Shown here piece after piece: positions 547 to 10,526 of a stretch of DNA of 10,526 bases. Each line of letters begins with the position of its first letter. The stretch's first letter is position 1. The position numbers were made by a program, and so were the translations under genes. The DNA comes from a virus. Its lineage: Duplodnaviria > Heunggongvirae > Uroviricota > Caudoviricetes. The notes under the pieces are model-generated. The model did no database searches, had not been told where the DNA came from, and saw only the letters and a program-made list of their open reading frames with translations. The stretch lies in the IMG/VR virus record IMGVR_UViG_2609459769_000020. The stretch is one strand, 5' to 3'.

Positions 547-686
547 TAAATAGTCTCCTCTTCATGGCTGTTTGCATAAACGTAAATAAACGTCTGCCAT
601 GCAGGCTTATAACGGTTCAGAATACATTCCAGCGCACCGCCTTCATAAATACGCAGCGGCGTGAGAATATCATCCAGCACATTCAT
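546..686 (-). CDS. Small ORF (46 aa) bridging the gemA-like stop and the tail-fibre start; possibly a remnant 3' end of a baseplate/tail gene rather than an independent gene
   Basis: My translation: MNVLDDILTPLRIYEGGALECILNRYKPAWQTFIYVYANSHEEETI. Its ATG (686..684) overlaps the gemA-like stop and its TAA (548..546) overlaps the tail-fibre ATG (TAATG). No recognisable family. Confidence 0.25.
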   Translation of the reverse strand: MNVLDDILTPLRIYEGGALECILNRYKPAWQTFIYVYANSHEEETI

Positions 687-886
687 ATTCCGGTAACCGG
701 CTTCTGACGCACTTTAAAACCGCGTTTTTTGAAAACATCCAGCACGCGGGATAACTCATCCGGTGACATATCCCGGCAACTGGGTTTGCCGGTGGCTGCC
801 AGTAGTACGGATGTGTAGGTCTCATGGTCAAGCTGTAGATCGCGTTTTGCGACATGTATTAAGGTAATCAGGGAAGCGCGATTCAT
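683..886 (-). CDS. gemA: GemA-family (Mu gp16-like) protein, apparently truncated (67 aa)
   Basis: ORF-track protein MNRASLITLIHVAKRDLQLDHETYTSVLLAATGKPSCRDMSPDELSRVLDVFKKRGFKV... fits the GemA/DUF1018 N-terminal pattern (LIHVAKR.L.LD.ETY...TGK.S...MS..EL..VL..FK..GF) as I recall it. SD GGAGA lies upstream of the ATG at 886. I recall family members being considerably longer (over 100 aa); here the frame stops right after the conserved N-terminal block. Confidence 0.5.
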   Translation of the reverse strand: MNRASLITLIHVAKRDLQLDHETYTSVLLAATGKPSCRDMSPDELSRVLDVFKKRGFKVRQKPVTGI

Positions 887-950
887 TATCGTGTCTCCGT
901 AACAACAGGCGGCATGGCAACGCCGCCCGGATAAAACTAAAGGTATCGAT

Positions 951-1361
951 ATGAAAATAGATTACGATGAAGTATTAAGTATTCTCACAACTTTTCAGGA
1001 TGCTGAAACACCTTTCCTTACACTACAGGATCTGGGCATGGCTGAGGCAGAAGGAGAGGAAAAGGATAAAAAAGTTTTTCATCTTATGCTTCTCGCTGAT
1101 AATGGCTCAATTGTTAATGGTGATATGCAGTCAGAAACACCCAAATATATTGGTTTCTTTTTCCATTCTCTGGGCGTTGGTTTCAGAAACACGCCCATTA
1201 TGCTTACCCAGCAGGGGCATGATTTAGCTAACGCCCTGAGAAAAAAACCAATCCTTGAAAGAATCAAAAAGGAGTTTACAGACGCACCATTTGATCTAAT
1301 TAAAGAAGTTACCAAATCAATGTTAACCAGGTTCGTCAAAGAACGTATTGGGATTGACTGA
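951..1361 (+). CDS. Hypothetical protein (136 aa), opposite-strand insert; possibly DUF2513-like
   Basis: ORF-track ORF with AAAGG about 7 nt upstream of the ATG. Visibly more AT-rich than neighbouring phage genes and the only convincing plus-strand gene inside the minus-strand operon. The LTQQGHDLANALRKKPILERIKKEF segment faintly recalls small prophage-associated DUF2513 proteins; unverified. Confidence 0.5.
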   Translation: MKIDYDEVLSILTTFQDAETPFLTLQDLGMAEAEGEEKDKKVFHLMLLADNGSIVNGDMQSETPKYIGFFFHSLGVGFRNTPIMLTQQGHDLANALRKKPILERIKKEFTDAPFDLIKEVTKSMLTRFVKERIGID

Positions 1362-1631
1362 ACAACTTAATTCAGCCAGTAATCGCAGGGCGGCGACAGC
1401 CGCCTGCTTGTCACTTCTTTTAGCTATTTCCGCAAGAGTATGCACAATCCATAACGGACTTAACGCCACGGCTGAATCCAGAATCATGTCATCCATAATA
1501 ATTTCTGGCATATCCCGCTTGTCACATTCTTTATCCATAAAAGAAACGAATTTCTCTGCATCTTCCGGTTTCATGCCTCCGGCGATAAGGATTTTGCGAT
1601 ATTCATAAGACGATCTTAATTCAATACTCAT
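1323..1631 (-). CDS. Hypothetical protein (102 aa)
   Basis: ORF-track ORF with ATG at 1631 and SD AGGTGA upstream. Its 3' end overlaps the plus-strand gene by 39 nt. No recognisable motif. Confidence 0.45.
   Translation of the reverse strand: MSIELRSSYEYRKILIAGGMKPEDAEKFVSFMDKECDKRDMPEIIMDDMILDSAVALSPLWIVHTLAEIAKRSDKQAAVAALRLLAELSCSVNPNTFFDEPG
1385..1429 (+). terminator. Candidate intrinsic terminator for the plus-strand gene
   Basis: GCAGGGCGGC (1385..1394), loop GACA, GCCGCCTGC (1399..1407): a 9-bp GC-rich stem with one bulged G, followed by the T-rich stretch TTGTCACTTCTTTTAGCTATTT. It works only in plus orientation and lies inside the convergent minus-strand ORF 1323..1631. Confidence 0.25.
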
Positions 1632-1646
1632 TATTCACCTGCCTGC

Positions 1647-1997
1647 TTAATCTGTTTCCAGTGCTTTGCTACGGGCTATAGCCTCACATTCAAAAAATAC
1701 CGACTCCGGCACGCGCTCTTTTAATTCACGAACAAGGAAATCATTAACGCGTTCATGACGTCTTATATTTCTTTCCTTTTCCTCCTGGCGCAATACAGCA
1801 AGGCGGTATTCAACAGCCCGGCGTTGTTTCTGAAAGACAGCCAGTGCTTTTCTGGCAGCATTACGCCATGCATCATCGCCACATGGTGCGTATTCAAGCT
1901 GAAATTTAATCTCTTCAATAGTTTCTTTGATTTTTGCCAGCAAGCTAAGACAGTCGCTTATTGTCTCCAGCTTTTCATTATCAATATAACTTCTCAC
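1647..1997 (-). CDS. Hypothetical protein with predicted coiled-coil character (about 116 aa from revised start)
   Basis: The track ORF 1647..2039 starts at a GTG with a 46-nt overlap into the upstream gene. An in-frame GTG at 1997..1995 sits about 6 nt after a strong SD GGGAGGTGA and overlaps the upstream TGA, so I place the start there. Charged heptad-like sequence (KIKETIEEIKFQLEY...RLAVLRQEEKERNIRRHER). Confidence 0.5.
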   Translation of the reverse strand: MRSYIDNEKLETISDCLSLLAKIKETIEEIKFQLEYAPCGDDAWRNAARKALAVFQKQRRAVEYRLAVLRQEEKERNIRRHERVNDFLVRELKERVPESVFFECEAIARSKALETD

Positions 1998-2323
1998 GCA
2001 TTCACCTCCCGTAATTCCGGTAAAGCCGAAATATGACACCAGTGCGTCACCTGTCCGTCTTCATCTTCAAGGCAGGCTCCGGTTTCTTCATCAACAAAAA
2101 AGCCTTCATACCCCATATGGCCGATGCGCAGCTCCTGACGGTGACCATACTGAACAATCAGCACGACAGCCTCCATATCAGGTGGGAAAGCATCATTCAG
2201 TGAATGCCAGGGATAACCGCGTAAATCCCCGAAATAAACACCGGTCAGCGTTCCGCCACAGAGCGGCATTCCGGCGGCACACACAAGAGGTTCATCTGAT
2301 TCAACAAATAAGGTCGTTATCAT
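1994..2323 (-). CDS. Hypothetical protein (109 aa)
   Basis: ORF-track ORF; its ATG overlaps the upstream stop (ATGA coupling at 2320..2323). No recognisable motif. Confidence 0.5.
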   Translation of the reverse strand: MITTLFVESDEPLVCAAGMPLCGGTLTGVYFGDLRGYPWHSLNDAFPPDMEAVVLIVQYGHRQELRIGHMGYEGFFVDEETGACLEDEDGQVTHWCHISALPELREVNA

Positions 2324-2871
2324 GGCGTTAACTCCCGTAATACAGCGTCCTCGGCAGTCCGGCGACGGTAATAAACTGCGTGAGCAGAATGTTCAGATAT
2401 TCCAAACTTTTCGCCAATTTCCCGGAATGACAGACGGCGTGGGTAATCGGAATCACGCAGCGCACGTATAAGACGTACATCATCATCAGATATGCGCGTG
2501 CCGGGGCGTAACTCTCCGCACTTTGTTAATCCAGCACCAATCATTCCTGCCCGACATCTGACAGAATCTTTATTACGTCCGAGATATTCTCCCATTTGCT
2601 GGCAGGTCATTGTTCTGGCATTTTTTCGAATAAACTTATCTTCATCAGGTGTAAATCTTGGGTGTTTATATTTCAGTAACTCCGGGTATGAACTGCGCAA
2701 TACACCAGTCCGGTTATATACAGCCCAGACAGTTCTTTTTATTCTGGCAGCAATATCCTTAACCGGGGTGGATGAATAAAGCGCAATCAGTAGCGCATCT
2801 TCTTCAGGTGTCCACGCGCGGACATGAGCGGGTGTACGACCTTTTCGCCCCATGTGTTGTAAAATCATCAT
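2320..2871 (-). CDS. Putative DNA-binding regulator: two Myb/SANT-like repeats plus a C-terminal HTH resembling the Mor/C activator family
   Basis: ORF-track protein (183 aa). Repeats WTPEEDALLIALY...IAARIKRT and FTPDEDKFIRKN...MGEYLGRNKDSVRCR; C-terminal SDDDVRLIRALRDS...LSFREIGEKFGISEHSAHAVYYRRR. SD GGGGGTGA upstream of the ATG at 2871. Confidence 0.55.
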   Translation of the reverse strand: MMILQHMGRKGRTPAHVRAWTPEEDALLIALYSSTPVKDIAARIKRTVWAVYNRTGVLRSSYPELLKYKHPRFTPDEDKFIRKNARTMTCQQMGEYLGRNKDSVRCRAGMIGAGLTKCGELRPGTRISDDDVRLIRALRDSDYPRRLSFREIGEKFGISEHSAHAVYYRRRTAEDAVLRELTP

Positions 2872-2874
2872 ACA

Positions 2875-3390
2875 TCACCCCCTGACTCGCTTTTCGGCAG
2901 CATAAAACTCATCAGACAGAATTTCGGTCATTTTCCGTTTTGCGGAATCATCTTCGCACTGAAGATAAATCACATTGTCAACGCAGAACCAGTTCACGGG
3001 ACCATACAATATTGCTGAGAAGTCAATACCCAGCCAGAACAACAGGGCATCGGTTCTGGCATACGTGACGGGCGAATATTCACGCCACAGACTGTTCAGT
3101 TCATCAGAGGCAACACGCAGGGCTTTAGGGATACGTGATGTGCGCGGTGTGCAGCTCCAGCCATTCGACGCAGTCGGTTTTCGCCATAAGTCGCGATGAA
3201 AAGGATATTTGTCCTCCGTAAAACGCAGTCCCTTAAAACAAAAACCACTGATACTGAATTCAAATACCGACCGGCACGCAACATTCAGCACGGCCTCAAG
3301 GCGTTTCGCCTCATCTTTTACCGTCTGGCAGTCCTGCTGGTATTTTTGCCACGCAGCCAGCGCGGAAGGGTTTGATGTTTTAAAGAACAT
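2875..3390 (-). CDS. Hypothetical protein (171 aa)
   Basis: ORF-track ORF with SD GGAGGTG upstream; its ATG overlaps the upstream TAA (TAATG at 3390). No recognisable motif. Confidence 0.5.
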   Translation of the reverse strand: MFFKTSNPSALAAWQKYQQDCQTVKDEAKRLEAVLNVACRSVFEFSISGFCFKGLRFTEDKYPFHRDLWRKPTASNGWSCTPRTSRIPKALRVASDELNSLWREYSPVTYARTDALLFWLGIDFSAILYGPVNWFCVDNVIYLQCEDDSAKRKMTEILSDEFYAAEKRVRG

Positions 3391-3923
3391 TACGCCACCT
3401 CCGCAGATATCCCGGCAGGCGCTGCTGTCCGGTCAACAATCAGGTAGCGCAGAACACGCGCGGTGATATTCCAGCCGCTTAAACCGCAGATGATGACACC
3501 CAGGCGAATGTCGATATACGCCATCACAAACTGGGGCACGCCTTCTTTCATGGCCTGCTCATCAACTTCAGCCACCACATAAACGGTTTCACAGGTCAGA
3601 ACGCCCTGAGCAAATTCCCACGCCATCGACGGAATATCATGCCCCTCAATCCATGGCAGGGATTTTCTGAAGCTGCACCACTGAACATCATCAGCCGCAG
3701 ATTCCTGTCTGCATTTGCGACGAATCGGCTGCACCGGGCGGGAACGCGGAATATCATAAAAACCGTTACATTCCGTCAGCACCCCGGCATCAACCGCATC
3801 ACGCAGAAAATAAACCATGGAGGATGGCGGCATATTCATTTTTTCAGCCAGTACGCCGCAGGTCAGACGCCCGTAAATACTCAGCCAGTTTTTAACCCCT
3901 TCAAGCACTTTTGCATCAATCAT
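3390..3923 (-). CDS. Hypothetical protein (177 aa), possible N-terminal winged-helix DNA-binding domain
   Basis: ORF-track ORF with strong SD GGAGGAA upstream of the ATG at 3923. The N-terminal segment LAEKMNMPPSSMVYFLRDAVDAGVL is HTH-like; this is a weak call. Confidence 0.5.
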   Translation of the reverse strand: MIDAKVLEGVKNWLSIYGRLTCGVLAEKMNMPPSSMVYFLRDAVDAGVLTECNGFYDIPRSRPVQPIRRKCRQESAADDVQWCSFRKSLPWIEGHDIPSMAWEFAQGVLTCETVYVVAEVDEQAMKEGVPQFVMAYIDIRLGVIICGLSGWNITARVLRYLIVDRTAAPAGISAEVA

Positions 3924-3926
3924 GAA

Positions 3927-4469
3927 TTATTCCTCCGTCAGCGCCACATATTCAGAATGTTTAATTTCCTGGCATTCTTCAGGAATACATCCGTTTATTT
4001 CCCTGCCATAAGCGCCCACTTTAAACACCACGCACAGGGCATCACGGGAGAACGAAGGGGTCCACCAGGAGTCCGTGTTAAACATGGAGGGGATTCTCAT
4101 TACCCCCAGCTTTTCACAGAGCCAGACAAGGAAATCAGGACGCTTTCTTAACTCGCGTTCAGCGGCTTCAATCATTGCGGCAATCGCCGGTCCTTCAGGG
4201 CATGACTCATCAGGTCTGGCTATAAAGCACTGTCCGCCACCGATAAAAGCCACATCATCGCGCTTACGCCAGCCCGCAGGCAGAGCACCGGCAAAATAAA
4301 ACTCACTGATTCTGTCCATGGCGAACGGCTTTAAGCGCAATCCGGCAGCGCCTGTATTTTTCAGTAATGTCCGAAGAATACTGTTGCGTAGCGGTAAAAC
4401 AGCCTGTTGATATTTGGTGAAATATTTATTTGTCTGCACACGGTCTAATTTGAAATAAAAATATGCCAT
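3927..4469 (-). CDS. Hypothetical protein (180 aa)
   Basis: ORF-track ORF with SD AAGGAA upstream of the ATG at 4469. First gene after the 97-nt AT-rich gap downstream of gam. No recognisable motif. Confidence 0.5.
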   Translation of the reverse strand: MAYFYFKLDRVQTNKYFTKYQQAVLPLRNSILRTLLKNTGAAGLRLKPFAMDRISEFYFAGALPAGWRKRDDVAFIGGGQCFIARPDESCPEGPAIAAMIEAAERELRKRPDFLVWLCEKLGVMRIPSMFNTDSWWTPSFSRDALCVVFKVGAYGREINGCIPEECQEIKHSEYVALTEE

Positions 4470-4566
4470 ATTTCCGATTCCTTATTTTCAGCTTTCAGGC
4501 GCAAGCAGTCCCCTGACGCGAGCGCCATAATTAAAATGAAGTGATATTTAAATAATTAATGCGGTG

Positions 4567-5097
4567 TTATTTATTCAGTCCGGCATCCTGTTCAAAAGGC
4601 TCGACATAAAAACTTTCAGCGCCTTTATTCACCTTTATACCGGCAATGCCTTTCACCGCATCCGGCTCCGCCAGGACGGCTTCCTTGTTCACTTCCTCTT
4701 TCGTGCGGATGAATCGCTCAAGCCCCATACGGCGCAGCGTGTCAATCACACCTTCCACATCACGGCTGACGCTGCATGATGGCGTTCCCAGCCGCCATGA
4801 CACCGTTCCGGTGGTCAGATTGGCAGTTTTGGTTTTGCCGCCGTTCGTCAGCTCATCACGGTTGGTTTTACACCAGTCCTGAATCCCTTTAAAAAGCACT
4901 TTGATTTGCTTTTTAAGATTTTCAATCTGCGGCGTATAACGGGCGGTGATTTCTGCCACTTCATCATTCATCGCCGTTTCCAGGCGCAGCGCCTCTCGCT
5001 GAATATCGCCCAGGGTGCGGATATCGCGGCTGACTTCTTCGCGGGTCTGCGGTGCGGCCTCGGCTACAGCCTTTAATTTTGTAACGCGTTTTGCCAT
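4567..5097 (-). CDS. gam: Host-nuclease inhibitor protein Gam (Mu Gam family, Ku-like DNA-end binding)
   Basis: ORF-track protein (176 aa) MAKRVTKLKAVAEAAPQTREEVSRDIRTLGDIQREALRLETAMNDEVAEITARY...CKTNRDELTNGGKTKTANLTTGTVSWR...ERFIRTKEEVNKEAVLAEP...EPFEQDAG closely matches my recollection of Mu Gam in length and in the LQREA.RLE.EMND, NRDELTNGGK.KTANL, RFIRTK.E.NKEA and PFEQ.AG blocks. SD AAGGA upstream. Confidence 0.8.
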   Translation of the reverse strand: MAKRVTKLKAVAEAAPQTREEVSRDIRTLGDIQREALRLETAMNDEVAEITARYTPQIENLKKQIKVLFKGIQDWCKTNRDELTNGGKTKTANLTTGTVSWRLGTPSCSVSRDVEGVIDTLRRMGLERFIRTKEEVNKEAVLAEPDAVKGIAGIKVNKGAESFYVEPFEQDAGLNK

Positions 5098-5108
5098 TTT
5101 GTTTTTCC

Positions 5109-5402
5109 TTATTGCAATGTATCTGGTGCGTTCTGCAAGGAGCGGCGCTCAATGCTGCTTTTCACCCCCAGAGCCTGCATGGAACCCTGAAGTTCATCTG
5201 TCAGAAACTGAATAATTGTGGGGCTGTGATATTTAAGAATTTGCGCATAAACATCACATGGGCCTGTCGGTCTGTTCTCCGTATCACGTTCGATTTTTAC
5301 AGTGGCAGTAACCCCCTCCGTGATTTCCTGACTATCATTACCGGCTGGCTTTACTTCATGCATTACGTGGTTAAATTCAAAAATAACGCGTACTTTGCTC
5401 AT
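5109..5402 (-). CDS. Hypothetical small protein, paralog 2 of a tandem pair (97 aa from revised start)
   Basis: The track ORF 5109..5429 has an internal ATG at 5402 placed 4 nt after the upstream TAA; this gives MSKVRVIFEFNHVMHEVKPAGN..., which parallels the N-terminus of the upstream gene. The two 5' ends also align at the DNA level. Confidence 0.45.
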   Translation of the reverse strand: MSKVRVIFEFNHVMHEVKPAGNDSQEITEGVTATVKIERDTENRPTGPCDVYAQILKYHSPTIIQFLTDELQGSMQALGVKSSIERRSLQNAPDTLQ

Positions 5403-5406
5403 GGAA

Positions 5407-5679
5407 TTACCCCTGCTGATTAAATTCATTACCGTTAATAACCCCGGAAGCCATGCCCCTGTCTTTCATGAATGCACTGGCTTTCATTGCCACAAGCTCT
5501 GCGAAGTTTCTGCTTTCCGCGAGCATAACCACCCCAAAAATCATGGCGGGTCCATCACCTTTCTGCTTTATCCCGGTTGAACGTATGTCCAGACTTACCC
5601 CCATGCGCACTGTTCCATCAGCGTTTTTATGGATAACGTGCTCCTTATATTCGAAAATAATGTGTACGACTTTACTCAT
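5407..5679 (-). CDS. Hypothetical small protein, paralog 1 of a tandem pair (90 aa)
   Basis: ORF-track ORF starting MSKVVHIIFEYKEHVIHKNADG...; its ATG overlaps the upstream TGA (ATGA). Confidence 0.45.
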   Translation of the reverse strand: MSKVVHIIFEYKEHVIHKNADGTVRMGVSLDIRSTGIKQKGDGPAMIFGVVMLAESRNFAELVAMKASAFMKDRGMASGVINGNEFNQQG

Positions 5680-5957
5680 CCTCTGGTCCTCGTTCTGTTT
5701 GGATAACTGACCCGGCGTCTGACCTCACGGCAGAACCGAATCATGGCATTAAAGGCTTCTTCCTCCGTCACCGCTTCCGGTATCCCCGGAACCAGTAACT
5801 GCTCCTGTTCATCACGTCCATGACGCGCCATAACCTCAATCACATGCCGTACCGTGGCAGGCTTTCCGGCAACTATCGGCAATGCACCTTCCGGCAGGAC
5901 GTAACCAAACTCAATAAGACCACTCGACCACGCCCATGCAATGAGATTTTTTTTCAC
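5676..5957 (-). CDS. Hypothetical protein (93 aa, GTG start)
   Basis: ORF-track ORF. The start is GTG at 5957, with a strong SD GGGAGGTG about 6 nt upstream. Confidence 0.45.
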   Translation of the reverse strand: MKKNLIAWAWSSGLIEFGYVLPEGALPIVAGKPATVRHVIEVMARHGRDEQEQLLVPGIPEAVTEEEAFNAMIRFCREVRRRVSYPNRTRTRG

Positions 5958-5958
5958 C

Positions 5959-6213
5959 TCACACCTCCCAGTAAACCGTGCAGCCGCTGATGCGGGTGGC
6001 CTTCACACGGCGGCGCAGGCCGTTGGTCTGTATGGTGATTTCAATTTCACCGGTTCCCTGCACGTTGCCTACCGGCGGCGTGGTTTTCAGTGCAAAACGT
6101 TGCGGATAGCGCTTACTGCGTTCCAGTACCGCACCGGCAAGTTCGGTCAGACGGCGCGCGCTGTTCAGGGAGTCGAATAAATTCATTTTGTTACCGCAGG
6201 ATTGCATATTCAT
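5959..6213 (-). CDS. Hypothetical protein (about 84 aa; start uncertain)
   Basis: Track ORF 5959..6225. The first ATG has no SD, whereas AGGTG precedes the internal ATGs at codons 5 and 7, so the start is more likely 6213 or 6207. Confidence 0.35.
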   Translation of the reverse strand: MNMQSCGNKMNLFDSLNSARRLTELAGAVLERSKRYPQRFALKTTPPVGNVQGTGEIEITIQTNGLRRRVKATRISGCTVYWEV

Positions 6214-6225
6214 ATAACACCTCAT

Positions 6226-6447
6226 TTAGCTGACTTGTTTCGCACCAACAGAACGGCATATTCCGCTGTAAACTTCTGTCGCACCTTCGCGATCAAGTCC
6301 GGCAGATATCACCATTCGTGTGCGGTCATTAAATTCAAAAAGTAAATCGCCACATTCTTTATTTTCGGCCAGTGAAATCACCTTCACGTTATCGAAATTA
6401 ACCAGGTAAAAGCGTCCGTAAATATCAGGAATATTAAATACCGCCAT
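6226..6447 (-). CDS. Hypothetical small protein at the position of Mu kil (first gene after B); function not established
   Basis: Track ORF 6226..6453 begins at a GTG. An ATG at 6447 with SD AGGTG 7 nt upstream sits 2 nt after the B stop codon. The kil assignment is by position only. Confidence 0.4.
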   Translation of the reverse strand: MAVFNIPDIYGRFYLVNFDNVKVISLAENKECGDLLFEFNDRTRMVISAGLDREGATEVYSGICRSVGAKQVS

Positions 6448-6449
6448 AA

Positions 6450-7391
6450 TCACACCTGTGAGAGTAATTCAGGGTTGGTATAAACCTCTTTAAAGGCCGC
6501 ATTAATATGTTTTTCTGTCAGCGCCGCGCCTTCACCGCTGGCGGTGAGCCACGCCTGGTTAAGCGTATGTGTCAGAACGCGTAACGCTCCCGGCTTTTCA
6601 GCGATAGCCTGCATGACGGCCAGCTCGGCCTCACCACTGATCCCCCACGCCATGGCAATGGCCAGCACATCCGCCTTTTTGGCCTTGCGAAGTTGTTTTG
6701 TACGGGCAAGACGGCTGAACAGGCGCGATAAATCATCAAAGGCGCGGCGTCCACCTTTAAACAATCCGCGCGGGTTACCAATAAGCACCATCCCGATCCC
6801 CGTGGCGTCCTGAATTGCCCGGAGTTGCTCCAGACCGTCAATACCAAGATGATCCGCCTCATCCACAATCACCAGTCCACGCGTTCCCATCAGGCGACGG
6901 CGGATGGCGCGGGATAATGCCCCTTTGTTCGCGCGGGTGTAATCAATCCCCAGCGCATCGGCCAGCTCCAGCAGACACTCCGTGACGCTGGAGTGCGCGG
7001 GTGACAGGGTGATCATCCAGGTGTTTGGTTGCTCCTGGCAGTAATTACGGGCAGTGGCCGTTTTACCCACACCCGGTACGCCCACAATAACGTTAATACA
7101 GCCCATCAGGCGAACCGCCTGAAACAGTGCGCGCAGCTCCTGGACTGTCTGAGTTTCCACAAACTGCGGCGGTTCCGGCAGTGCGCTTTGTTTATTCCAG
7201 TTCTCATACCAGGAGCGCAGGGAAGCAGCCACAGCAGCGTTATCGCCTTTATATTTTCCCTTACGGAAAGCCGATAATGTGCCGTCGGAAATTCCCGCCT
7301 CTCTGGCGATGGCATACTGCGTCAGTACGCCGCCATCAATAAGTTCATCAATGGTCTTGATTACATCGTTAATATCGGTCATATTATTCAC
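6450..7391 (-). CDS. B: Mu B-like ATP-dependent target DNA activator (AAA+ transposition ATPase)
   Basis: ORF-track protein (313 aa). Walker A GVPGVGKT and Walker B LVIVDEADHL are present, and the N-terminal HTH-like segment and overall length match my recollection of Mu B (312 aa). The track start is GTG at 7391; an ATG at 7382 preceded by GAGG may be the true start. Confidence 0.85.
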   Translation of the reverse strand: MNNMTDINDVIKTIDELIDGGVLTQYAIAREAGISDGTLSAFRKGKYKGDNAAVAASLRSWYENWNKQSALPEPPQFVETQTVQELRALFQAVRLMGCINVIVGVPGVGKTATARNYCQEQPNTWMITLSPAHSSVTECLLELADALGIDYTRANKGALSRAIRRRLMGTRGLVIVDEADHLGIDGLEQLRAIQDATGIGMVLIGNPRGLFKGGRRAFDDLSRLFSRLARTKQLRKAKKADVLAIAMAWGISGEAELAVMQAIAEKPGALRVLTHTLNQAWLTASGEGAALTEKHINAAFKEVYTNPELLSQV

Positions 7392-7464
7392 CTCGCTTGA
7401 GACAGCATTCTCCGAGACTGAAACCTCAAATAACCTGAGTCACCCCTCGGGTTATTTTTTTATT

Positions 7465-9555
7465 TCAGGCCAGCGGATCACTTTCTTTTAATTTCGCTTC
7501 GAGCAGTTGCAATCCCCGCTGGAAATTACGCTCGTATTCTTCATCAGGTTCATCGTCAGCGACCGGTTGCTGAACGGTCACCGTATTACCCACAGGGCGG
7601 TATATGTTTTCCAGCCAGGGCTCCTGCGGCTTGTGCTCCAGCACGTTGACAACCTCATCCTCGGCATCACGGATTTTTTCCTCTGCGCGTTTACGCATGC
7701 CTTTAAGGCGCTGCTGCTGTTTGTAGTATTCCGCGCTGACAGGGAAGGCTTCGCGTTTATTGCCGTCCCATACCGCCTCGCAAATCACGCTGCCATCCGG
7801 GCGGCGCACGGTAATTCGTTCGGCATCATGAATGTCATAGCTGATAAGTACCTTACGGCCATGCTCGTCACGCAGCTCGGGCGCGTAGTAAATATTATTC
7901 AGCCAGCGTATTTCACAGCGTCTTACAGGGCGCTCCACCATCGGCCGGAACATATCCCGCAGTTCAACATCGGACAGCCATTCAATTTCCGTGTCCTCTT
8001 CCGCCAGGCGTTTTTTTCTGAACTCCGCCGGGCTGTAATGTTTACCGTTCGGCTTCATGGGTAATTCATCGTGCGGCCGGTTGTTGTACCACTCAACACC
8101 GTCACGAATGGCATCAATCAGTTCAGACCAGGACGGTAAATCACGCATCGCTGACTGCTGCCGGGCGTTCAGCCGTTTGCCCTGTTGCAGGGCACTGAAT
8201 GCCGAGCGTAAATCGCGGTTGGTTTTACGTAACGTCTCGCGATCTGCTCCTTTCCCGAAATAGGTGCGGTATTTACGGGCTATGCGCATCGGTAATGTGC
8301 GGTTAAGCCGTTCGATAATGCCCCGTCCCTGCGGATTACCGGCAATCCCTGTCGGGTGATTAATCCCCAGTCGTGGCAGTATCCCCACAATCTCCTTATC
8401 CAGGACGTCGGCGGTTTCCCCGGAGCCATTATCCGAGTAATACAGAAACGGTTTGCCATGATGGCGAATACCGTGCTGTATGGCACCGGCTACGGCGAAA
8501 ACATTTTCAGCCAGGTCAAGACTCCAGCCCACCACAAAGCGCGTGCCACCGTCGATAACAAAGGTCACTTCCGGTGCGAATGGCCGCCCGTGAACCGGGT
8601 GCGCGCATTTCAGCTTCATGCCGTGACCGTCACCAATCCAGACATAATTCACCGGCATTCTGGACCAGTCGCGGCGCGTGAATCCCTCAAGCTGACGGTA
8701 TTCACTGCCAGTTACCCGGCCTTTTTGTTTCACCACTTCCGGCAGTTTCTTCATTGCGCGGCGAATGGTGTCATAAGAGGGCATGATATCGAGCATATAA
8801 GGCTCATCAGCGTGCCGGTGCTGCCATTCAGCAACAAAATCCTCGTAAGCCTCGGTCATTGGTCGGCCGTTTGACTGGCGATACTGCGCCAGAAATTCGG
8901 GCAGCCAGTTAATATCTTCGGCTTTTATTTCCTGGCGTTTACCCGGTGCCAGTAAAAGCAGGCGTTCAGCGGCGTTCTGTGCCTTGTTAAAGGCCGCAAT
9001 CCAGCGTTTCAGCGTGATTTCACTCAACGCGCGGCTGTTTCCCTTTTTGGCGTTCGCCGTCTCAACCATTGCCACAATGCGCTCGTCCAGTTGTGATCGT
9101 GCCAGGCTGTTAACGAGGAACCGGATAGCCTTAGCGCAACTAAAGCCGGGTTGTTGCGCGATTTTCAGCACCTCGCTGACGATCGCTATTCGTGCCTCTG
9201 CCACTTTACGTTGGTTTTCAGTCAGGGCATTGAGGCGTTCGACCATCAGTTGGGGTGATCCGCGATATGCCTCCACCGCATCAACCACGGCAGGTGAGCG
9301 TCTGGCCTTTGTCACCACCGGAGCCGGTGATTCATCGGCTTTTTGCGTCATCAGTTGCAGGGCGTAGCGTTCACGTAATGCCTGCTGCGTCACTTCAGGT
9401 AAACAGTCGATGCTGTATTCAGTTGCTTTAGAGCCTGAGCGACGACGGGAACAACAGCTTTTCCCTTGTACGTAACGTTGTAATGCCTGGCGAATACCTT
9501 TTGTTGTAGCAGGCATTCCGGGCGCGCCAATCAGTTCTTTTGCAATGACATACAT
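7465..9555 (-). CDS. A: Mu A-like DDE transposase
   Basis: ORF-track protein (696 aa). Candidate catalytic DDE triad in the segments WIGDGHG, YYSDNGSG and GRGIIERLNRTL, with spacing consistent with the Mu A/retroviral-integrase fold. Position is immediately downstream of ner (the ner stop and A start are 1 nt apart). Confidence 0.85.
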   Translation of the reverse strand: MYVIAKELIGAPGMPATTKGIRQALQRYVQGKSCCSRRRSGSKATEYSIDCLPEVTQQALRERYALQLMTQKADESPAPVVTKARRSPAVVDAVEAYRGSPQLMVERLNALTENQRKVAEARIAIVSEVLKIAQQPGFSCAKAIRFLVNSLARSQLDERIVAMVETANAKKGNSRALSEITLKRWIAAFNKAQNAAERLLLLAPGKRQEIKAEDINWLPEFLAQYRQSNGRPMTEAYEDFVAEWQHRHADEPYMLDIMPSYDTIRRAMKKLPEVVKQKGRVTGSEYRQLEGFTRRDWSRMPVNYVWIGDGHGMKLKCAHPVHGRPFAPEVTFVIDGGTRFVVGWSLDLAENVFAVAGAIQHGIRHHGKPFLYYSDNGSGETADVLDKEIVGILPRLGINHPTGIAGNPQGRGIIERLNRTLPMRIARKYRTYFGKGADRETLRKTNRDLRSAFSALQQGKRLNARQQSAMRDLPSWSELIDAIRDGVEWYNNRPHDELPMKPNGKHYSPAEFRKKRLAEEDTEIEWLSDVELRDMFRPMVERPVRRCEIRWLNNIYYAPELRDEHGRKVLISYDIHDAERITVRRPDGSVICEAVWDGNKREAFPVSAEYYKQQQRLKGMRKRAEEKIRDAEDEVVNVLEHKPQEPWLENIYRPVGNTVTVQQPVADDEPDEEYERNFQRGLQLLEAKLKESDPLA

Positions 9556-9556
9556 A

Positions 9557-9805
9557 TCATGACGCCTTTCTCATATAGCTCTTAACCTGGTATCGACTGG
9601 GCCAGATTTCTTCAGGTGATACCCCAAGAGCATCAGCAATTATTTGCTGATACGGTCGGCAAGGAGTACGTAATACGCTTTTCAGCGAATCCCTGCTGTA
9701 ACCAGCCTTTAAAGATAAAGAGCGCAGTGATAAGCCAGCCATGTGTAAGCGCGCCTTGATGATTTCAGGCGGCCAATCGTGATCTGAAACTTCTCTTCTA
9801 CTCAT
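9557..9805 (-). CDS. ner: Ner-like DNA-binding protein (Mu Ner / E. coli Nlp family)
   Basis: ORF-track protein (82 aa) ...DWPPEIIKARLHMAGLSLRSLS...QQIIADALGVSPEEIWPSRYQ... matches the recalled Ner/Nlp pattern, including the C-terminal IWPSRY block. SD GAGGAAG upstream of the ATG at 9805. Confidence 0.8.
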   Translation of the reverse strand: MSRREVSDHDWPPEIIKARLHMAGLSLRSLSLKAGYSRDSLKSVLRTPCRPYQQIIADALGVSPEEIWPSRYQVKSYMRKAS

Positions 9806-9995
9806 ACTTCCTCTATTCTAAAAAGTTACCCGCGCGGATATTCGTGCGGATATCTGTACGGGTAAATAATGCATCACCAAAAATACCAAATCAAGGTATT
9901 TTTGGTATTTTGGCTAATTTTTGCTTTTATCCTTATTTTTCAATTGGATAAATAGAAAGAAACCTTTCCTTAGAAAAGCACCAAGAGGTATCTTT
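9806..9995. promoter_or_regulatory. Divergent repressor/ner control region (operators and promoters for early and repressor transcripts)
   Basis: A 190-nt AT-rich gap between divergent regulator genes. It contains a tandem 8-bp direct repeat GCGGATAT (9834..9841 and 9846..9853) and a perfect 12-bp inverted repeat plus a further half-site copy. A TAGAAT -10-like hexamer sits on the minus strand just upstream of the ner SD. Exact promoters were not resolved. Confidence 0.6.
9876..9906. repeat. Perfect 12-bp inverted repeat ACCAAAAATACC-N7-GGTATTTTTGGT, candidate operator
   Basis: Read directly: 9876..9887 and 9895..9906 are exact reverse complements with a 7-nt spacer. A third direct copy GGTATTTTGG overlaps at 9904..9913. 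Confidence 0.6.
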
Positions 9996-10526
9996 ATGTC
10001 GCAGGGAAAAGAACCTGTTATTGAACGTATTGGAATGCTTACAAAGCGCTACCCTTCAAGAAGTGCAGCTGCCAGAGCGTGGGGAATCAATATCAACACA
10101 TTAAACAGCTATTTCAAGGGAGGACAAACACAACCAGCCCCCAGAGAAAGTATCCTTATACGAATTTCTGAAAGTGAAGGCGTTAGTCTTGAGTGGCTTA
10201 AAGAGGGCAAGGGTGAATTACCAAACGATATTGGTATTTATGGTAATTTTGGTTGTTCTGGTGATAAGGGAGATCAGCTTACACAGATGCTTTCATTCCT
10301 TACGAAAGACGAACGAGAACAGTTAACCAATCTCCTTGCTCGCAAAGGTGTGGAGACGGTTCTGACACTGCTGAATAAAGAAAACCAGGATTTATTACAA
10401 CTAGAAGGCAGGAAGCGCCTGGCTGCGTTGATGATTGTAGATATGCCAGACGATTGCGTCAGAGAGATTTTGGAAAAAACCGAGACAAGTAGGCAATCAA
10501 ATCCGGTAGAATCTAAAGCGGGTTAG
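9996..10526 (+). CDS. Prophage repressor (functional and positional analogue of the Mu/D108 c repressor)
   Basis: The track ORF 9921..10526 has an internal ATG at 9996 preceded by SD AAGAGG, which I take as the start (176 aa, MSQGKEP...). N-terminal HTH-like segment with GVSLEWLKEGKGE, typical of phage repressors; the C-terminal helical region loosely resembles the Mu c C-terminus. Divergent from ner. The TAG stop falls on the last three bases of the window. Confidence 0.7.
   Translation: MSQGKEPVIERIGMLTKRYPSRSAAARAWGININTLNSYFKGGQTQPAPRESILIRISESEGVSLEWLKEGKGELPNDIGIYGNFGCSGDKGDQLTQMLSFLTKDEREQLTNLLARKGVETVLTLLNKENQDLLQLEGRKRLAALMIVDMPDDCVREILEKTETSRQSNPVESKAG

Follow-up and report, generated by a model that had tools for sequence, protein, structure and literature searches.

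Does a small DNA-binding protein encoded in the early operon of a Mu-like prophage stand in for a missing Mor activator, or does it serve another function? The question is raised by the gene at 2320-2871 of a 10,526-nt stretch of viral DNA (hereafter the window), which forms the early (left) end of a Mu-like Escherichia coli prophage with its early operon on the - strand. An earlier note had described the product as an unusual fusion of two Myb/SANT-like repeats with a C-terminal helix–turn–helix (HTH) of the Mor/C type, possibly substituting for absent mor/C functions or regulating accessory genes. Our analysis favours another reading, to which we give a probability of about 60%: the gene encodes an accessory early DNA-binding regulator of the prophage, built of three Myb-like modules, and not a Mor/C-type activator of middle or late transcription.

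The open reading frame was confirmed at exactly the coordinates first proposed, on the - strand and with a length of 183 aa (Table 1). It is a real gene under purifying selection, as indicated by a dN/dS of about 0.3 (0.28–0.30 against alleles 70–72% identical to it) and by its match to PHROG 323. A 100% tblastn match to the protein exists in E. coli JKHS016, where RefSeq annotates the product (WP_000973019.1) as ‘SANT/Myb-like DNA-binding domain-containing protein’. Upstream on the same strand lie ner, A, B, gam and the gp11-like gene; gam is followed by three genes of ~175 aa, by the gene itself and by three more small genes. The gene belongs to the non-essential (‘semi-essential’) early region, with the Mu gp11-like gene on one side and gemA on the other. 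Its Shine–Dalgarno-like element, GGGGGTGA, shares nucleotides with the stop codon of the preceding gene (2875-3390), and its own stop codon overlaps the start of the downstream gene (1994-2323); these two overlaps indicate that the gene is embedded in the early operon and translationally coupled with its neighbours.

Table 1. Positions of the gene, its protein segments and signals, the surrounding early genes and the P2-like loci with a neighbouring methyltransferase; positions refer to the window unless a locus (L) is named.
Feature	Position	Strand	Basis or remark
Coding sequence, 183-aa protein	2320-2871	-	ORF list; pI 10.0
N-terminal basic peptide, aa 1-18 (MMILQHMGRKGRTPAHVR)	2818-2871	-	Alignments; predicted disordered
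Repeat 1, aa 19-60, Myb/SANT-like	2692-2817	-	W20-TPEED; helices 22-32, 37-43, 48-59
Repeat 2, aa 72-111, Myb-like	2539-2658	-	F73-TPDED; helices 75-84, 90-97, 101-110
Repeat 3, aa 125-170, diverged tri-helical HTH	2362-2499	-	Helices 129-140, 149-156, 160-169
C-terminal helix, aa 171-183 (RTAEDAVLRELTP)	2323-2361	-	AlphaFold2 helix 173-181
Shine–Dalgarno-like GGGGGTGA	2875-2882	-	3 nt 5' of ATG; read from sequence
ATGA stop/start overlap with downstream gene (1994-2323)	2320-2323	-	ORF coordinates and sequence
Repressor-like gene	9996-10526	+	Corresponds to RefSeq CDS of JKHS016 prophage, L001 15309-15839
ner	9557-9805	-	Early operon, upstream of 2320-2871 gene
MuA transposase	7465-9555	-	Early operon
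MuB	6450-7391	-	Early operon; run of small genes next
Gam	4567-5097	-	Early operon
Mu gp11-like gene	3390-3923	-	Pfam Gp11_C; one of three ~175-aa genes
gemA/gp16, truncated	683-886		67 of 170 codons
P2-like methyltransferase-neighbourhood loci	L016 4698-5666; L018 5060-6004, 6537-7544; L020 4993-5958, 6452-7471; L023 4729-5682		

Regulatory signals were scarce around the gene. A scan for sigma-70-like promoters returned no match near it, and promoter-like sites in 600-10526 were fewer than chance (5 versus 12.6 expected from shuffles). A search of the window for repeats and inverted repeats yielded only short two-copy matches at chance level and no candidate binding-site repeats; the dyads that had been anticipated upstream of the downstream genes did not appear 5' of any of them. 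Rfam identified zero families at gathering score across the whole window. PADLOC gave no match for the 183-aa protein or for the seven neighbouring gene products, and membership of a defence system was rejected on this ground. At the other end of the operon, the intergenic region between ner and the repressor-like gene contains a near-perfect 18-bp inverted repeat (9873-9918; ACCAAAAATACCAAA ... TTTGGTATTTTGG), which also scored as terminator-like on the + strand and lies at what we take to be the expected place of the early operator/promoter region of a Mu-type phage. The repressor-like frame can be extended to an upstream TTG at 9921 in the ORF listing.

Structure prediction, which had been advised as a check, returned three HTH bundles. 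In the AlphaFold2 model of the 183-aa protein (mean pLDDT 78, pTM 0.41), these appear as separate three-helix bundles, with low confidence in the linkers and the N-terminus and pLDDT below 50 for residues 1–16. Both of the W/F-TP-E/D-ED blocks described in the earlier note, W20-TPEED and F73-TPDED, are present, and the repeats that carry them (R1 and R2) are homologous, with hhalign probabilities of 97% (E 2.5e-11) from 14 sequences and 98.7% (E 1.6e-16) from 28. In the 28-sequence alignment, the third module (R3) aligns with R2 at a probability of 92% (E 5.8e-7) and with R1 at 84% (E 8e-6); all three pairwise alignments share one register, that of R3 to R2 running from helix 1 through helix 3. 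Repeat 3 is read as a putative diverged third copy of the R1/R2 module, with the qualification that short HTH profile matches can also reflect convergence.

Conservation is distributed unevenly along this architecture. Helices 1 and 2 of repeat 3 (DVxLIRALRD and FREIGEKF) form the most conserved part of the family (~1 bit entropy); likewise conserved are the KCGD linker and the C-terminal tail, whose helix keeps T172, D175, E180 and L181. The N-terminal peptide keeps the motif L-x-P-M-G-x-P-G-x-x-P-x-H in the family alignments, including the 28-sequence set. Among the helices of each repeat, variability peaks in the third (2.2–2.7 bits), which in an HTH usually serves for recognition, while the scaffold is otherwise conserved; this is the pattern that lineage-specific DNA targets would produce. 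Collectively, the model describes three tandem homeodomain-like/Myb-like HTH modules connected by predicted flexible linkers and flanked by a conserved basic N-terminal peptide and a C-terminal helix. This predicted fold, together with an excess of basic residues (35 K+R versus 22 D+E; pI 10.0), suggests that the protein binds DNA.

The likeness to Myb/SANT domains holds in a broad sense. Pfam Myb_DNA-binding (PF00249) passes marginally at 25.2 bits (gathering score 24.4; E 1.7e-5), with an aligned stretch restricted to residues 19–33 (15 of the 46 profile positions); Myb_DNA-bind_6 stays below threshold at 17.5 bits, and the homologues P0005 and P0022 carry precomputed PF00249 matches. A profile of 14 homologues matches c-Myb R2R3 (1h88_C; E 1.8e-4) in a single alignment through both repeats, covering profile positions 19–106 and chain residues 60–149. 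The expected bundle of three helices, the second and third of which make up the HTH, is present, as is the tandem arrangement of ~50-aa repeats known from R2R3, with R1 and R2 aligning at E 1.6e-16. The triad of regularly spaced Trp residues is not kept in the repeats, the whole protein having just two Trp: only the first position is aromatic (W20 in R1, F73 in R2), and the second and third positions of R1 are occupied by V37 and V57 in a residue mapping of the HMMER c-Myb alignment.

Compared with known systems, the three-repeat arrangement is analogous to the DNA-binding domain of c-Myb (R1R2R3, and R2R3-MYB proteins; PF00249, PF13921), although the phage protein keeps only the first Trp, has shorter repeats between helices 1 and 2, a strongly diverged third repeat and a Pfam score barely above threshold, and is of bacteriophage origin. 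A Foldseek search of the whole model against PDB gave nothing at E<=1e-3; its top match was archaeal Cbp2 (2lvs; probability 0.96, E 0.085), which the sequence profile also found at E 3e-3. Cbp1 and Cbp2 are likewise small, basic proteins with only two or three imperfect homeodomain-like HTH repeats (PMC3597662). The likeness is nonetheless weak, common descent is at most a possibility, and these archaeal host proteins bind CRISPR repeats, a different biological context.

The proposed fusion architecture turned out to be neither unusual nor a fusion of the kind described; the protein belongs to a recurrent family of ~180 aa. Residues 5–182 match profile positions 82–256 of the 319 in PHROG 323 (E 5.8e-52), whose label ‘transcriptional regulator’ is an annotation of putative function, and the protein is 97% identical to a cluster, built at 90% identity, that comprises 447 sequences, making it a direct member of the PHROG 323/RefSeq SANT/Myb-like proteins of enterobacterial prophages. 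An exhaustive profile search retrieved 8,547 representatives at E<=1e-3, which fall into two classes. The first comprises at least ~25 clusters at 50% identity, retains the ~180-aa three-module layout with conserved end motifs and originates from Enterobacterales (E. coli, Salmonella, Citrobacter and Kluyvera). The second consists of many long bacterial and metagenomic proteins with 3–10 tandem copies of an R1R2-like unit. Large prokaryotic Myb-repeat arrays of this kind (P0024, P0027, P0035, P0045 and others) span 300–1,340 aa; P0024 carries Pfam ResIII and Helicase_C helicase domains followed by seven Myb repeats, and P0035 derives from a Propionibacteriaceae MAG. A literature search on Myb-like proteins of prophages, the RefSeq accession and the annotation name retrieved no paper on the family.

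Homologues occupy early, accessory, mosaic regions in prophages of Mu-like, P2-like and lambdoid type. In Mu-like prophages the homologue always has the o171 gene on one side and the o109 or o102 genes on the other. Within this lineage, the 70–72% identical allele is flanked by neighbours that are 88–97% identical; its dS reaches 0.56–0.61, compared with 0.10–0.27 for the neighbours, and dN/dS is unchanged at ~0.3. Raised dS at a constant dN/dS points to cassette exchange by recombination, and accelerated evolution of the 72%-identical allele was rejected, dS having risen along with dN. The 180-aa gene at 3927-4469 (-; PHROG 2260) is a hypervariable cassette, only 24–34% identical in L012 and L015, and in L012 the genes flanking its counterpart are 95–98% identical. 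The DUF2513/PHROG 585 gene at 951-1361 (+) has the opposite orientation inside the early operon, its 3' end overlapping the convergent gene at 1323-1631 (-) by 39 bp, and resembles a moron that was inserted with an orientation of its own.

An accessory early regulator could operate as follows. Position in the early region and translational coupling to neighbouring genes make it most probable that the gene is expressed from the early promoter Pe as lytic growth begins. Almost all of the protein consists of three HTH modules on flexible linkers, for which reading as a monomer is the simplest mechanism: a single molecule would contact an extended, asymmetric stretch of DNA with its three recognition helices. 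c-Myb R2R3 reads an extended site as a monomer with successive recognition helices. Among homeodomain-repeat proteins, the HTH array of Cbp1/Cbp2 reads a long asymmetric site as a monomer (PMC3597662). Once bound, the phage protein would modulate the transcription of phage or host genes; its conserved surface may contact a common partner, and variation in helix 3 may direct it to lineage-specific targets.

The main rival to an accessory early regulator is a non-transcriptional DNA-binding role in early host takeover or counter-defence, which we regard as possible and clearly the less probable of the two. It is suggested by genomic neighbourhoods with methyltransferase, Lar and Gam genes, and by the resemblance of the C-terminal domain to GcrA. 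In P2-like phages the homologue belongs to the early operon, where it follows cox and stands shortly before replication gene A. Four of these loci have a D12-class (Dam-type) adenine methyltransferase gene just upstream of it (directly in three, with one short ORF between in L023), the homologues being 39–46% identical to the window protein; directly downstream, before replication gene A, some P2-like loci have a gene with a PAPS-reductase domain or one for a C5 cytosine methyltransferase. In a lambdoid-type Salmonella prophage, the homologue sits between the Lar restriction-alleviation gene and the Rha/Ash genes. Such a role might consist of targeting or modulating methylation, occluding restriction sites or, like the GcrA DNA-binding domain, recognising methylated DNA.

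The GcrA resemblance has a defined extent. The DNA-binding domain of Caulobacter GcrA (5yiu) has a fold similar to that of the phage protein at an identity of only 15–17%, but the phage protein is devoid of the sigma-interacting C-terminal domain and has three DNA-binding modules where GcrA has one; the GcrA family profile (PF07750) gave no match at E<=10, so that the likeness is limited to the fold of the DNA-binding domain. A more specific idea, that the ~180-aa family is a monomeric Myb-type reader of DNA state, either a GcrA-like sensor of adenine methylation or a specificity or targeting partner of the Dam-type methyltransferases encoded beside it in P2-like phages, appears improbable. 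If true, three types of temperate phage would use it to reprogramme host transcription or evade restriction and defence early in infection.

The same C-terminal domain could be taken for a sigma-region-4-like module, making the protein a factor that binds RNA polymerase as a sigma mimic or appropriator. Its structural neighbours include the GcrA DNA-binding domain (6.2) and region 4 of ECF sigma factors and SigA (5.8–5.9), and further CENP-B, Tc3, Cdc5L Myb, Reb1, Rap1 and c-Myb R1. The sigma-70 region 4 profiles that had been suggested as a check scored under threshold, however, with matches to PF04545 and TIGR02937 far under the gathering scores of 24.1 and 42.9 bits; the matching region scores equally weakly against HTH_AsnC, HTH_10 and MarR, and no sigma region 2 or 3 is present. 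We consider such a factor unlikely.

An AsnC/Lrp identity was also examined. The HTH_AsnC-type profile reaches 19.8 bits, short of its gathering score of 27; the model has helices only and lacks the AsnC_trans_reg ligand-binding domain; with a sub-threshold match and no second domain, this identity was rejected. Alleles 57–73% identical to the window protein (P0002, P0004 and P0006–P0014) bear the name ‘AsnC family protein’ in RefSeq/NCBI, which is probably a propagated misannotation resting on the sub-threshold HTH_AsnC-type match.

Also unlikely is an origin from a transposase or homing endonuclease, whose DNA-binding module would persist in domesticated or remnant form and possibly aid phage transposition or replication, with a Tc3- or IS630-like bipartite HTH or an HNH-associated HTH array as conceivable sources. 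Against it, no catalytic domain is encoded within the protein or adjacent to it, and the ~180-aa length and end motifs are kept across more than 25 clusters (50% identity) under purifying selection, which marks it as a functional protein in its own right. No homologue at E<=1e-5 exists in phage Mu itself, which places the protein outside the core transposition machinery.

The relation to Mor and C, from which the question arose, was addressed at the levels of profile, sequence and fold. The shared ground is that all are small, basic proteins of Mu-type phages with an HTH (Mor/C: PF08765; 1rr7, 9l0x, 9l0y). PF08765 gave no match at E<=10, either with the full-length protein or with residues 120–183, although the Mor-family protein of the near-identical JKHS016 prophage scored 106.9 bits in the same search and also matched the solved structures of Mu C (9l0x, E 2e-28) and Mor (1rr7, E 2.5e-11). 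That gene at the Mor position of the JKHS016 prophage (L001 5193-5615, -) is much nearer to Mu C (9l0x) than to Mu Mor (1rr7). Comparing the C-terminal domain with the lineage's own Mor-family protein, hhalign returned a probability of 0.3%; BLASTP gave no alignment at E<=100; the profile of the domain retrieved no Mor or C chain from PDB at E<=10, and no similarity to Mor (1rr7) or C (9l0x) was found in sequence or structure. Mor and C combine an N-terminal dimerisation domain with a single C-terminal HTH in about 130–140 aa (cf. PDB 1rr7). The phage protein differs in layout, with three independent three-helix bundles in the 183 aa of the AlphaFold2 model and no dimerisation domain. Of the C-terminal Mor/C-like HTH in the earlier note, the HTH itself was recovered and its Mor/C character was not: the domain is a generic tri-helical HTH.

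The absence of mor from the window has a separate explanation. Positions 690-10526 are 99.9% identical to the prophage of E. coli JKHS016, and 248 of the 5,426 complete E. coli genomes contain a match to one part or another of the window. Positions 1-704 match tail genes (the YmfQ family and its neighbours), which lie ~14.5 kb past gemA in the same prophage region of JKHS016 and ~22 kb past it in JE86-ST02. The tail and early-region homologies overlap by ~10–15 bp at about 690-704, where gemA is fused to a tail gene and the gemA/gp16 reading frame is cut to 67 of its 170 codons; the overlap at this junction suggests a microhomology-mediated deletion. Lost in the internal deletion were mor, the lysis genes and most of the late genes, which leaves the prophage defective; mor is missing because of this event and not through takeover by another gene. 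In relatives whose contigs reach past gp16, a Mor-family gene stands directly after gp16/gemA in addition to a homologue of the 2320-2871 gene (L001, L006, L008, L009, L011, L013 and L015, the L015 homologue being 51% identical). A genuine Mor-family gene thus has its own locus after gemA in intact relatives, and its coexistence with the homologue contradicts the suggestion that the protein replaces the missing mor/C. That two Myb repeats were fused to a Mor/C-type activator HTH to supply the absent middle or late activator function, as the existence of a C-terminal HTH and the lack of a mor or C gene inside the window might imply, is contradicted on Mor/C membership and is the least credible of the readings.

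The protein itself is unsurprising to a specialist: its annotation as a phage DNA-binding protein or regulator was already known, and the three-repeat reading and the correction of ‘AsnC family’ are small refinements. The chief value of the analysis is corrective, in that there is no Myb–Mor chimera, mor was lost by deletion and the label ‘AsnC family protein’ on the sister alleles is misleading. Beyond this, three-repeat Myb-like proteins form a family that is found repeatedly in early accessory regions of enterobacterial prophages, whether Mu-like, P2-like or of lambdoid type, and the DNA targets of this family would reveal what such temperate phages regulate early in lytic growth.
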